Source of the DNA: a virus
Lineage: Duplodnaviria; Heunggongvirae; Uroviricota; Caudoviricetes
Length of the DNA stretch: 36,109 bases
IMG/VR virus record: IMGVR_UViG_641736116_000027
Direction: 5' to 3' (one strand)
Shown piece by piece: positions 4,592 to 7,180 of the stretch. The position numbers and the translations under genes are program-made. The notes below the pieces were generated by a model that was not told the DNA's origin, did not search any database, and was given only the letters and a program-made list of their open reading frames with translations. The stretch's first letter is position 1. The number at the start of each line of letters is the position of its first letter.

Positions 4592-4674
4592 GTTCACAGA
4601 TAAAACACTCTCCAGGAAACCCGGGGCGGTTCAGTAGTACAATTCTCTCCAGTTTGAACAGGAAAGAATATGTT

Positions 4675-5007
4675 ATGAACCCTTATATTTATCTTGGTGG
4701 TGCAATACTTGCAGAGGTCATTGGTACAACCTTAATGAAGTTTTCAGAAGGTTTTACACGGTTATGGCCATCTGTTGGTACAATTATTTGTTATTGTGCA
4801 TCATTCTGGTTATTAGCTCAGACGCTGGCTTATATTCCTACAGGGATTGCTTATGCTATCTGGTCAGGAGTCGGTATTGTCCTGATTAGCTTACTATCAT
4901 GGGGGTTTTTCGGCCAACGGCTGGACCTGCCAGCCGTTATAGGCATGATGTTGATTTGTGCCGGTGTGTTGGTTATTAATTTATTGTCACGAAGCACACC
5001 ACATTAA
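4675..5007 (+). CDS. emrE: small multidrug resistance efflux transporter EmrE (110 aa)
   Basis: MNPYIYLGGAILAEVIGTTLMKFSEGF...LLSRSTPH matches E. coli EmrE essentially over its full length. The ATG at 4675 is preferred over the upstream TTG used by the ORF track. Confidence 0.95.
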   Translation: MNPYIYLGGAILAEVIGTTLMKFSEGFTRLWPSVGTIICYCASFWLLAQTLAYIPTGIAYAIWSGVGIVLISLLSWGFFGQRLDLPAVIGMMLICAGVLVINLLSRSTPH

Positions 5008-5251
5008 AAATAATTTCTTTTAAAAGACTGCAATATGGCGGTTCATATCTTTACATGGGCCGCTTTTGTTAATGTTTTTAGTTTTTGTGTATTCTTTTGT
5101 GCCTTCAAGATTATTGCGTAAGCAAATTGCAATACGATTATTGTTGTATATTCAAGATAGTGTGATCGTAATTGTCTTTTTAAATAAAAATTAAACAAAA
5201 ATTATATCTCACCACTAAGGTTTATAAAAGCATAAGTTAGCAGGTGTCACC

Positions 5252-6774
5252 ATGAAAAAAGCCATAGCATATATGCGATTTTCATCACCAGGTCAGATGT
5301 CTGGCGACTCATTAAACCGACAGAGAAGACTTATTGCTGAATGGTTAAAGGTAAATAGTGATTATTATCTTGATACCATAACATATGAAGATTTAGGATT
5401 AAGTGCATTCAAAGGAAAGCATGCACAATCAGGAGCTTTTTCGGAATTTTTAGATGCTATAGAGCATGGTTATATATTGCCAGGAACTACATTGTTAGTT
5501 GAAAGTCTGGACAGACTTTCAAGAGAAAAAGTCGGTGAAGCGATTGAACGTCTGAAATTGATTTTGAATCACGGTATTGATGTTATAACTCTTTGCGACA
5601 ATACAGTCTATAATATTGACTCTTTGAATGAGCCATATTCATTAATAAAAGCCATACTTATAGCACAAAGGGCAAATGAAGAAAGCGAGATAAAGTCAAG
5701 TCGGGTTAAATTATCATGGAAGAAAAAACGGCAGGATGCACTGGAATCAGGTACGATTATGACGGCGTCTTGTCCGAGATGGCTCTCCTTAGATGACAAA
5801 AGAACGGCTTTTGTTCCAGACCCCGACAGGGTGAAAACTATTGAGCTAATTTTTAAACTCAGGATGGAAAGGCGCTCATTGAATGCAATAGCCAAGTATT
5901 TAAATGATCATGCTGTAAAGAATTTCTCAGGAAAAGAAAGTGCATGGGGGCCTTCTGTAATTGAAAAATTATTAGCGAATAAAGCTCTGATAGGTATATG
6001 CGTACCTTCATATCGTGCAAGAGGGAAAGGGATAAGTGAAATCGCTGGCTATTATCCCAGAGTCATATCAGATGATTTGTTTTACGCTGTACAGGAAATT
6101 CGGTTGGCACCTTTTGGTATTAGCAATAGTAGCAAGAATCCTATGCTAATAAATCTACTTCGAACAGTTATGAAGTGTGAGGCTTGTGGTAATACCATGA
6201 TTGTTCATGCGGTATCTGGAAGTTTGCATGGCTATTATGTTTGTCCGATGAGAAGATTACATCGATGTGACAGGCCATCAATAAAGAGAGATTTGGTTGA
6301 TTATAATATCATTAATGAATTTTTAATTGTAGCAAAATTCAACCAGTTGAAAACAAGAAAGATGCTAATGAAACTTTAGAGTTAAAAATTATTGAGCTTC
6401 AGATGAAAATTAATAATTTAATCGTTGCATTGTCTGTCGCGCCTGAAGTTACCGCTATAGCAGAGAAAATAAGACTATTAGATAAGGAATTACGAAGAGC
6501 TTTGGTATCATTGAAAACTTTGAAGAGTAAAGGTGTAAATTCATTCAGTGATTTTTATGCTATTGACTTAACCAGTAAAAATGGACGAGAGTTATGCCGT
6601 ACACTTGCCTATAAAATATTCGAAAAAATCATAATTAATACGGATAATAAAACCTGTGATATCTATTTTATGAATGGCATTGTTTTTAAACACTATCCTT
6701 TAATGAAAGTAATATCCGCCCAGCAGGCGATAAGTGCTCTCAAATATATGGTTGATGGTGAGGTTTATTTTTGA
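5252..6774 (+). pseudogene. ybcK: large serine recombinase (ybcK-like), split by a frameshift near 6350-6370
   Basis: The N-terminal resolvase domain has the YMRFSSPGQ nucleophile motif and LLVESLDRLSR, and there is a Cys-rich zinc-ribbon region (CEACGN...YYVCP...HRCD). Two adjacent ORFs (5252-6379 in frame 2, 6403-6774 in frame 1) overlap in reading potential at 6319-6379 around an A-rich tract (6351-6360). Confidence 0.6.
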
Positions 6775-7180
6775 GTAATAATCACTTTTTCAACCGTGCT
6801 ATGGTATGAAAGTAAAGTAACTACTATGATATTAACTATCGAGCAAGAATATCCCCAGGCACTCAACAGGGCGCAGGTCAACGTGAATCGGTCATGACAC
6901 GACACCGATTTTGCGGAATCAATGTTGCTTATGAATACAACATCCCGCTTAGTACATGTTCAACACATCAGCAAATTTTGAACTGGGTGTGGCACTTAAC
7001 TGAAAAAACATGGATGACACAAAATGTTACTCGTCGCTTCATTGAAGTAGCTTGTGGATATCACAAGCTAGACTATCGCCAATGATATTCAATTTTTGAT
7101 TTTTTAGTATCAACCTTCCATAATAATGTCACCGGAGCTTGAACAACTCCGGTGACTTCTGCGCATTTAAGGGGACTTAA

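Follow-up and report, generated by a model that had tools for sequence, protein, structure and literature searches.

The AT-rich block that carries emrE and ybcK in the window (the whole analysed stretch of 36,109 nucleotides, IMG/VR record IMGVR_UViG_641736116_000027) is a known accessory segment, which occupies the slot between ren and the nin genes in DLP12-type lambdoid prophages. The window prophage is an Escherichia coli O157:H7 copy damaged by insertion-sequence activity. With the insertion sequence removed, the block spans positions 3267-7093 and is an accessory (moron) segment in the ren-ninB hotspot of the defective lambdoid prophage beside icd. It is probably a composite of separately assorting pieces, which would have been spread passively by homologous recombination, and in this strain it has been reworked by IS629.

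Composition and gene content of the block

When its insertion sequence is disregarded, the window matches the icd-adjacent prophage of O157:H7 strain RM6067W at 99.99% identity across 10.4 kb, and the pristine version of the locus is found in strain 277 (locus L022). Among 673 sliding windows of 2,460 bp placed along the 36-kb window (mean G+C 52.7%, sd 6.0%), the segment 4634-7093 ranks first as the lowest, at 36.3%. The G+C content is 41.7% in emrE, 29.1% in the emrE-ybcK spacer, 35.5% in ybcK and 39.8% in the remnant cargo, compared with 49.6% in each of the flanks, O-P-ren and ybcN-Q. GC3 shows the same contrast, with values of 0.29-0.35 within the block against 0.50-0.60 for the flanks. 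The contrast with GC-richer surroundings described in the initial annotation was thus borne out by calculation, and the block is foreign by composition. Pfam domains likewise support the content proposed there, that is, emrE and a large serine recombinase with a zinc ribbon (Table 1). Variable and compositionally distinct genes (36% versus 50% G+C), with a terminator of their own, lie here between conserved phage genes, and the region is a moron hotspot in this sense. Both emrE and ybcK are already annotated in DLP12-type prophages; the locus is an ordinary, known one. Scans with Rfam and for tRNAs revealed no RNA genes except the frameshift pseudoknot of the insertion sequence and IS009.

Table 1. 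Features of the emrE-ybcK block and its borders in the window
Feature	Position	Strand	Basis
ren	2992..3294	+	left mosaic junction ~27 bp before stop codon (~3267)
Left arm (GTTCAAACTG) of 10-bp inverted repeat, ren-emrE interval	3312..3321	.	read from sequence
IS629/IS1203 (IS3 family), 1,310 bp	3324..4633	+	Pfam HTH_Tnp_1, rve; RefSeq annotation of identical copies
IS629/IS1203 orfA	3378-3704		
IS629/IS1203 orfB	3701-4591		
Right arm (CAGTTTGAAC) of the same inverted repeat	4650..4659	.	read from sequence
emrE, intact SMR efflux pump gene, 110 aa	4675..5007	+	Pfam PF00893 Multi_Drug_Res, E 2e-35
Terminator-like hairpin and T run directly 3' of emrE	5037..5064	+	scan of L022 6404-6431
Small ORF in very AT-rich emrE-ybcK spacer, position of K-12 ylcJ	5066..5194	+	ORF list, RefSeq annotations
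ybcK pseudogene (large serine recombinase)	5252..6774	+	Pfam Resolvase, Recombinase, Zn_ribbon_recom; alignment to intact alleles
66 bp after ybcK, common to ybcK-bearing phages other than K-12	6775..6840	+	sequence comparison
Decayed downstream cargo	6841..7093	+	comparison with L082, L025, PhiR26_1
Right hotspot anchor, ahead of ylcH and ybcN	7096..7156	+	scans
ybcN (NinB/Orf-like), first conserved nin gene right of block	7276..7731	+	PHROG 72, E 6e-51; weak Pfam NinB match

The EmrE protein of the window retains Glu14 and differs from K-12 EmrE by two conservative substitutions. Its four-helix organization, length of about 110 residues, PF00893 domain and Glu14 place it, on sequence criteria, in the SMR family, and since the gene is intact it should still export cationic drugs. 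The hairpin that follows emrE is part of the segment missing from emrE-only loci, and K-12 has a compensated version of it.

Left edge and the IS629/IS1203 copy

The left edge of the block was initially placed at 4640, which proved to be merely the end of the IS629/IS1203 copy; after removal of this element the block begins at about 3267. Homology to the P-ren region of lambda and of Stx phages stops at L022 position 5947, corresponding to window position 3267, and homology to the chromosomal emrE-ybcLM block begins 8 bp before the ren stop codon. The element has the ends TGAACCGCCCCGG.. and ..CCGGGGCGGTTCA and is bordered by a target duplication GTA at 3321-3323 and 4634-4636, as read at the junctions; an ALIL frameshift pseudoknot was detected by Rfam at 3659-3775. 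These features agree with those that define the IS3-family element IS629/IS1203, namely some 1.3 kb of sequence ending in inverted repeats, target duplications of 3-4 bp, and orfA and orfB joined by programmed frameshifting. It separates the two arms of the ren-emrE inverted repeat, which is uninterrupted in loci L001 and L022. The ren-IS629 junction was found in none of 5,426 complete genomes. The insertion ends 41 bp 5' of the drug-efflux gene emrE, and may alter its expression.

Right edge, downstream cargo and anchor

The right edge of the block lies at 7093/7094, and all cargo classes end just before the anchor, which consists of a promoter-like sequence TTGATT-17-CATAAT (7096-7124) followed by an inverted repeat with a 12-bp stem (7128-7156). 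The anchor is conserved in phage 82 (as a 'possible regulator-binding site'), phi80 (IR4) and HK639. The decayed cargo to the left of it includes an internal piece of the rha/ant 3' fragment, coding for ..IEQEYPQALNRAQ.., and an ORF (6894-7085) corresponding to the last 63 residues of a phage ORF of 105 aa (phrog_2559). The emrE-ybcK segment abuts the 3' third of rha. This gene is full length in PhiR26_1, which carries PD-lambda-1 in the same slot; a 5' fragment of rha was found upstream of neither ybcK nor emrE.

A large serine recombinase gene frameshifted in the window

Intact alleles of ybcK encode a large serine recombinase (LSR) of full architecture. The Pfam domains PF00239 (E 6e-19), PF07508 (E 1e-14) and PF13408 (E 1e-7) are present; 17 relatives with 41-61% identity all have the residues R9, S11, D87, R88 and R91, which the window copy retains, and the zinc-ribbon ligands C309, C312, C331 and C339 are likewise invariant. 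In the AlphaFold model of the intact protein, residues 370-397 and 402-430 form helices and residues 458-507 a beta subdomain, and Foldseek matches this model over its full length to SprA, phiC31 and Bxb1 (E 7e-18 to 3e-14). A single-sequence search of the PDB with YbcK gave no match, and a profile search gave only marginal similarity, to SprA (E 3e-5). The family searches with PADLOC and NCBIfam yielded only a weak match of YbcK to XisF (47 bits versus a cut-off of 375). The closest relatives of YbcK are prophage-borne. They are encoded either in nin regions or, in several cases, at the ends of prophages, which is the expected place of an integrase. A grouping with housekeeping invertases, which had been named as an outcome adverse to a mobile origin, was not observed.

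Relative to the intact alleles, the window copy has a 4-bp deletion (TTGC/TGCT) between positions 6319 and 6320. The frame shifts after residue 356 and runs to a stop at codon 376, giving a truncated product (5252-6379), while 123 codons of the C-terminal part persist out of frame as an ORF at 6403-6774. RefSeq already marks the O157:H7 copy as frameshifted. The coiled coil and the C-terminal portion of the zinc-ribbon domain, both present in intact alleles, are missing from the window copy. Because the coiled coil and C-terminal subdomain of serine integrases are needed for synapsis, the truncated protein, with its 356 native residues, should be inactive.

The deletion is most likely a recent, strain-level scar of insertion-sequence excision, since it is located exactly at an IS629/IS1203 site of sister O157:H7 strains. 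In F7386 and other strains, IS1203 occupies this site with a duplication GAAT and an intact adjoining TGCT, and exactly TGCT is missing at the site in both the window and RM6067W. Occupied, intact and scarred alleles are all present among O157:H7 strains. IS629 activity is a known driver of micro-diversity in O157:H7, and the frameshift in ybcK appears traceable to it.

Conservation of ybcK in other phages

Outside the window the picture is different. The gene is intact in 83 of 84 loci examined, with a median dN/dS of 0.07 that points to strong purifying selection. Thus, the view of the block as a decayed element holds only for the window copy of ybcK, which is a pseudogene with a real frameshift, but not as a statement of general decay. 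Intact ybcK is carried by inducible phages that also have a tyrosine integrase; Perceval, for instance, encodes a tyrosine Int and an Xis of its own besides ybcK. Where the gene is undamaged, in other phages, its product is probably a functional enzyme of the serine integrase type that is kept by selection, and its conservation in inducible phages already possessing a tyrosine integrase poses a testable question.

It is possible, though doubtful, that YbcK is a working phage protein, expressed with the delayed-early nin genes, whose function was lost in the window; its role could be that of an additional integration/excision system directed at an alternative attB, for example, or site-specific recombination with effects on competing phages or on cargo exchange at the hotspot. 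The strong selection, the presence of intact copies alongside tyrosine Int and Xis in inducible phages, and the invariant catalytic residues are consistent with this explanation. In addition, an LSR gene is found in the nin region of Atlantibacter-type and of Pantoea prophages as well, in two separate clades, and defence genes adjoin. A Rho-dependent terminator has been described in the K-12 ybcK leader (PMC4150792), and under N antitermination transcription would be expected to pass through such a leader. However, no prophage with its ends beside ybcK was seen among the loci and the sampled genome matches, none of the 84 loci has an inverted segment, and apart from the shared anchor no repeated site surrounds the cargo cassettes. 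PADLOC and NCBIfam gave no defence match for YbcK, and the literature on ybcK function or on serine recombinases in nin regions yielded nothing specific and no published phenotype. A broader proposal, that YbcK-type LSRs are functional, selected residents of lambdoid accessory-gene hotspots (in the nin region and beside tail-fibre genes), where they might, for instance, form a second integration/excision system or drive the turnover of cargo beside defence genes, with the window copy as a recently killed member, is quite improbable.

Separate assortment of emrE, ybcK and downstream cargo

The emrE-ybcK junction is present in 1,400 genomes, and about 2,250 other E. coli genomes appear to have emrE without ybcK, a figure that rests on sampled matches in which homology ends 7-8 nt after emrE. 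The arrangement emrE-ybcL-ybcM, without ybcK, is the commoner one in E. coli. It occurs in the prophage remnant beside fliE, and the presence or absence of a 2,083-bp ybcK segment is a precise difference between DLP12 of K-12 and this fliE-linked block. In a hand alignment of K-12, O157 and the emrE-only strain U13A, the junctions share AATAAT alone, in AT-rich DNA, and K-12 contains a further 270 bp corresponding to neither partner.

Downstream of ybcK, related phages carry at least nine types of cargo, including ybcLM, an alpha/beta hydrolase, BstA and an HNH-like ORF. The same slot is filled in other phages by BstA, PD-lambda-1, SIR2 or a methylase, and in others the whole block from ren to the anchor is swapped for different cargo. 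Diverged LSR alleles (72% nucleotide identity) hold the same nin position, which argues for long residence rather than repeated insertion. In Atlantibacter-type loci, mosaic junctions lie 120-340 bp upstream of the LSR gene.

These data bear on a second alternative, in which the insertion was limited to the ybcK unit (about 1.8-2.1 kb, beginning 7 nt after emrE and ending 40-300 bp after ybcK). This unit would have been a small element inserted by its LSR between emrE and cargo in an ancestral lambdoid phage, or what survives of one end of a phage or satellite that integrated there through an LSR, and would now hitchhike. Such an event would leave a clean difference like the 2,083-bp one; the LSR clade has members at prophage ends, and the upstream junctions of the Atlantibacter-type loci cluster. 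In the distant locus L015, moreover, a second copy of a 5' fragment of the DUF1367 gene lies about 150 bp ahead of the homologous LSR gene. This is the pattern that a gene-restoring integrative element would leave, but as evidence for an att site it is ambiguous, because the sister locus L009 lacks the duplication and the region is otherwise mosaic. Nevertheless, a lone insertion of the ybcK unit is unlikely. No second insertion context was seen in E. coli, where ybcK is single-copy and in the same context throughout the loci and genome matches examined; emrE lies upstream in 80 of 80 loci with enough upstream sequence (84 examined) and in all sampled genome matches. The short sequence shared by the junctions, the unmatched K-12 DNA and the diverged alleles in one position do not favour it either, and purifying selection without mobility would need another explanation.

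Search for attachment sites

The initial annotation suggested that the block had arrived as an independent integrative element and that, in this case, the former attachment site of the recombinase might be recognizable at the edges. Direct and inverted repeats and att cores were searched for at the edges in the pristine locus (L022 5600-8800), and only chance-level matches were obtained, with neither an att-like core nor a target duplication. The loop of the right anchor (..AGCTTGAACA..) resembles the left inverted repeat (..AGTTTGAACA..) over 7-9 nt, but this likeness was dismissed, because other phages have CCTGAACAAC in the loop. The two ends share no core or repeats; ybcK follows emrE in all loci and genome matches examined, with no second target context; rather than both halves of a disrupted gene, only the 3' third of rha flanks the segment. 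Two further candidates were rejected: an invertible segment, with no minus-strand matches among the cargo regions of the 84 loci, and integron-like cassettes, the cargo boundaries sharing nothing except the anchor. Crossover cores of LSRs are just 2 bp and their half-sites are degenerate, and a cryptic att site may be present at some junction.

Entry of the whole block by YbcK-mediated site-specific recombination, with later decay and attL/attR relics at the edges, is therefore disfavoured and very improbable: although the foreign composition is fairly uniform across the block, a complete LSR gene adjoins the cargo, its relatives take the integrase position at prophage ends, and inverted repeats lie at both edges, the right repeat is a conserved phage regulatory landmark found also in phages without the block, the left edge lies inside ren, the block is always single-copy and in the same place, emrE and ybcK assort separately with variable cargo after ybcK, the edges are lambdoid mosaic junctions, and ybcK is maintained by selection. 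The mere proximity of a recombinase gene to cargo does not show that the enzyme transported it, and in the present case both the junctions and the population data speak against such transport.

Proposed origin of the block

In the composite origin that we favour, the block would consist of three pieces. The first, the emrE unit, would comprise the ren tail, the inverted repeat and emrE; the second, the ybcK unit, the emrE terminator, the AT-rich leader, the LSR gene and about 40-124 bp after it; and the third, remnants of further cargo, that is, the rha/ant 3' fragment and the truncated small ORF. Their passive spread would have proceeded by homologous recombination through P/ren on the left and the promoter/inverted-repeat anchor and ybcN on the right, with a contribution from occasional illegitimate joins, and the block's own recombinase would not have been the vehicle. 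Temperate phages are known to take up DLP12 DNA, including the nin region, by relaxed homologous recombination (PMC3945230). In this strain IS629 has reworked the block, one copy lying upstream of emrE, and the deletion in ybcK would be a scar of IS excision.

Comparison with known systems

The deletion in ybcK resembles what is left in enterohaemorrhagic E. coli when the IS-excision enhancer (IEE) promotes the loss of IS629, a process accompanied by adjoining deletions from a few nucleotides upward (PMC9943667). Here, too, a small deletion lies beside a documented IS629/IS1203 site, the excision being deduced from strain comparison.

With SPbeta SprA, phiC31, Bxb1 and the Listeria A118-type integrases YbcK shares the resolvase domain (Ser11, Arg9, Asp87-Arg88..Arg91), and intact YbcK also has their recombinase domain, four-Cys zinc ribbon and coiled coil, at just 13-20% sequence identity. 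Unlike these serine integrases, it is encoded within a nin region, in phages equipped with a tyrosine integrase of their own, and the window protein lacks everything after residue 356.

The closest counterpart of the block is in the defective prophage DLP12 of E. coli K-12, where ren, emrE, an AT-rich leader and ybcK stand in the same order, with 97% nucleotide identity. The same nin genes come next (ylcH, ybcN, ninE, ybcO, rusA and ylcG), and an IS3-family element likewise lies just 5' of emrE. However, this element is IS3 inside ren in DLP12 and IS629 in the ren-emrE spacer in the window. The prophages also differ in their site (argU for DLP12, beside icd for the window) and in their integrases. 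The window lacks ybcL and ybcM, having decayed rha-type cargo instead; its ybcK is frameshifted, and its Q, of 229 aa, belongs to the phage 82 type.

More generally, the block is similar to the moron and defence hotspots of lambdoid phages (bor, lom and the nin-region defence genes), which are likewise AT-rich, lie between conserved genes, have their own terminator and vary in content among close relatives, exchange through flanking homology having been shown experimentally for DLP12. Unlike usual morons, this slot holds a conserved recombinase gene under purifying selection.

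Boundaries and origin of the AT-rich block

The segment between ren and ylcH-ybcN stands out by composition, as the initial annotation had proposed. The G+C content of positions 4634-7093 is 36.3%, the lowest among 673 sliding windows of equal size (mean 52.7%, sd 6.0%). At third codon positions, emrE and ybcK have a G+C fraction of 0.29-0.35, and the genes P, ren, ybcN, rusA, and Q one of 0.50-0.60. The left limit first assigned to the block, 4640, is the end of an IS629/IS1203 copy, and the homology of P-ren to lambda, and to numerous Stx and lambdoid phages, ends at about 3267, 27 bp before the ren stop codon. 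On the right, homology to phages 82, HK639, phi80, and others picks up again at 7094. Every ybcK locus has at this edge a conserved promoter-like element with an inverted repeat, hereafter the anchor, and so do phages 82, phi80, and HK639. It has been annotated as a "possible regulator-binding site" in phage 82 and as "IR4" in phi80, and serves as the fixed limit of the cargo slot on the right. The corresponding lambda interval is only 74 bp long and contains a terminator-like hairpin, which by its position we take to be tR2. Thus the block lies between ren and a NinB-type gene, and the nin genes have not been replaced, contrary to the initial view that it substitutes for part of the nin region.

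Features of the block, its surroundings, and the compared loci
Sequence	Feature	Position	Remarks
Window	Tyrosine integrase gene	1-1143	Minus strand; excisionase gene alongside
Window	O replication gene	1369-2297	Directly after xis
Window	Inverted repeat, arms	3312-3321, 4650-4659	10 bp, between ren and emrE
Window	IS629/IS1203 copy	3324-4633	1,310 bp; target duplication GTA
Window	emrE	4675-5007	Intact; SMR family match, E 2e-35
Window	ybcK	5252-6774	Resolvase, recombinase, and zinc-ribbon domains
Window	Remnant cargo	6841-7093	Internal piece of rha fragment, then last 63 codons of a 105-aa ORF
Window	Anchor	7096-7156	Promoter-like TTGATT-17-CATAAT, then inverted repeat with 12-bp stem (7128-7156); ahead of ylcH-ybcN
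Window	IS009 RNA	35871-36069	Near window end; Rfam match, 229 bits
L003 (K-12)	K-12-specific 270 bp	8196-8465	Between ybcK and ybcL upstream region
L004 (U13A)	2.1-kb emrE fragment	6966-9108	Beside fliE
L009	Defence/modification cargo	5818-7881	
L013 (Erwinia)	80-aa and 107-aa gene pair	10207-10772	After YbcK homologue
L015	Defence/modification cargo	3755-5695	
L015	DUF1367 duplication	7652-7853; 10625-10831	83% identity
L048	Defence/modification cargo	12146-13090	
L112 (Pantoea prophage)	Pair of equal sizes	7325-7890	Before YbcK homologue
L231 (PhiR26_1)	Defence/modification cargo	1191-2693	

A lambdoid prophage makes up the first 12 kb of the window; it is defective because the immunity and early-left region (N, cI, cro, and cII) is wholly deleted. 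The gene order after xis is O (lacking its N-terminus), P, ren, the IS element, emrE, and the split recombinase gene, followed to the right of the block by ybcN (NinB-like), ninE, ybcO, rusA, ylcG, a phage-82-type Q, and lysis genes. Outside the IS, the region matches the icd-adjacent prophage of E. coli O157:H7 RM6067W at 99.99% identity over 10.4 kb. An IS-free version with an intact recombinase gene is present in E. coli strain 277, used here as the pristine reference, and in several O157:H7 strains.

YbcK is a conserved large serine recombinase

The predicted zinc-ribbon large serine recombinase was confirmed, with all three domains detected. Intact YbcK is a complete enzyme of this type, 508 aa long, and 17 relatives all keep its catalytic residues and its four zinc-binding cysteines. 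In the AlphaFold model (mean pLDDT 78), the catalytic and recombinase domains and the zinc ribbon are accompanied by a coiled coil of two helices (370-430) and, at the C-terminus, a beta subdomain.

Relatives at 41-61% identity belong without exception to Enterobacterales. Those in the nin region are found in lambdoid prophages of the Atlantibacter type, where diverged recombinase alleles retain the position, and in Pantoea dispersa; one relative has a plasmid-like context. In Erwinia, Yersinia, Ewingella, and a Pantoea species, the gene lies past the tail-fibre genes, at most 1-2 genes from the prophage end, a position at which one would expect an integrase, beside attP. In the neighbour-joining tree the nin-located members split into two separate clades. 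On this evidence YbcK groups with mobile-element integrases.

Two observations concern the surroundings of these relatives. In locus L015, a second copy of the first 59 codons of DUF1367, with the 50 bp preceding them, lies about 150 bp before the YbcK homologue, an intact DUF1367 gene being 3 kb downstream; this matches what a gene-restoring integrative element would leave and is absent from the sister locus L009, so the case is ambiguous. A gene pair of the same sizes occurs on opposite sides of the YbcK homologue in an Erwinia and a Pantoea prophage, the 107-aa product in Erwinia being UmuD-like by PHROGs.

In general ybcK is not a decaying relic: it is intact in 83 of 84 E. coli-type loci, its median dN/dS is 0.07 (846 allele pairs), and Perceval and similar active phages have it in addition to a tyrosine integrase and an excisionase of their own. 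Our literature search found no functional study of the gene. A Rho-dependent terminator has been reported within its leader (PMC4150792), and ybcK counts among the polyphosphate-dependent Hfq binding sites, a type tied to silencing of AT-rich DNA (PMC10954037).

IS629 activity in the block

The emrE gene placed in the block by the initial annotation is indeed there; its product retains Glu14 and has two conservative differences from K-12 EmrE. Its start codon is 41 bp past the IS629/IS1203 copy, which sits in the loop of the 10-bp inverted repeat. A search of 5,426 complete E. coli genomes found the junction of this copy in none, so the insertion is recent or rare. During paraquat evolution of K-12, a predicted IS insertion arose 39 bp before emrE and was suggested to increase EmrE production (bioRxiv 10.1101/2022.12.20.521246), so the copy in the window may alter emrE expression.

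The recombinase gene has a 4-bp deletion between 6319 and 6320 that shifts the frame after residue 356, and the truncated product is left without coiled coil or C-terminal subdomain. As both control synapsis in serine integrases, it should be inactive. An IS629/IS1203 copy (target duplication GAAT) interrupts ybcK in F7386 and in seven or more further O157:H7 strains, with an intact TGCT immediately to its right; the window and RM6067W have no IS at this site and lack exactly TGCT. The frameshift is probably an IS-excision scar, given this exact loss, the chance of about 0.5%, by our estimate, of an independent deletion within ~4 bp of the IS site in a 1,527-bp gene, and the deletions from a few nucleotides upward reported beside IS629 when it is excised with the help of the IS-excision enhancer (PMC9943667). 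The suggested decay of the block thus holds for the ybcK copy in the window, not for the gene at large, and is probably a local consequence of IS activity.

Composite structure of the block

The emrE gene also occurs without ybcK. In strain U13A, a fragment unaccompanied by other phage genes begins 8 bp before the end of ren and, past the inverted repeat, carries emrE, ybcL, ybcM, the anchor, and part of ylcH; it lacks a 2,083-bp segment beginning 7 nt past the emrE stop codon. It terminates at an IS200/IS605 element. In a junction-spanning search over the 5,426 complete genomes, emrE was joined to ybcK in 1,400; about 2,250 other matching E. coli genomes appear to carry the emrE-only form, as homology in sampled hits stops 7-8 nt past emrE.

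Sequences after ybcK in 85 loci form 11 similarity groups, two of which are IS-disrupted forms of others, leaving at least nine cargo classes. Among them, K-12 has ybcL-ybcM and Perceval an alpha/beta hydrolase on the opposite strand; others bring the abortive-infection gene bstA (E 4e-121), an HNH-like ORF of 260 aa, and ORFs of 169, 118, and 83 aa. The K-12-specific 270 bp contain a palindrome with 13-bp arms and a minus-strand terminator-like hairpin, which suggests a lost minus-strand gene. BstA, PD-lambda-1, a SIR2-domain protein, and a C5 cytosine methylase are defence or modification cargo in the ren-to-nin slot of related phages.

Most ybcK phages carry a 107-aa ORF, its start 112 bp past ybcK, that represents the final (3') third of a rha/ant gene. 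PhiR26_1 has full-length rha/ant, preceded directly after ren by PD-lambda-1; relative to it, PD-lambda-1 and the 5' two-thirds of rha are replaced by the emrE-ybcK segment, and no 5' rha fragment was found on the other side of that segment. Judged from these sequences, the right-hand junction is an illegitimate join. The window cargo is a more decayed remnant of this sort of cargo, its 105-aa source ORF being intact in locus L082. The occurrence of emrE without ybcK, the varied cargo, and this right-hand join show that the block is composite.

Exchange of the block and comparison with known systems

A former attachment site had been expected at the block edges; the pristine locus yielded only chance-level repeats. 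AATAAT, within AT-rich DNA, is all that the two ybcK-segment junctions have in common; the cargo-class boundaries share nothing beyond the anchor, and no inverted segments occur among 84 loci. E. coli ybcK is single-copy, essentially chromosomal, and directly right of emrE in all loci and genome hits examined. No sign was seen that the recombinase had moved the block. Hence, of the proposed independent integrative element, the foreign composition and the integrase-type recombinase stand, and recombinase-driven arrival gives way to a composite hotspot.

The locus is already known and annotated, and relaxed homologous recombination has been shown experimentally to supply temperate phages with DNA of the defective K-12 prophage DLP12, including at the nin region (PMC3945230). 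Several database phages propagated on K-12 encode YbcK identical to the K-12 protein, which may reflect the same kind of exchange. Given the fixed context and the lack of attachment sites and inversions in these comparisons, passive exchange through flanking conserved genes would suffice to explain the distribution of the block. The point of interest is the role of intact YbcK in the phages that keep it. Its model is aligned by Foldseek over the full length with the SPbeta recombinase SprA (E 7e-18) and the phiC31 and Bxb1 integrases, all three of which are distant from it in sequence.
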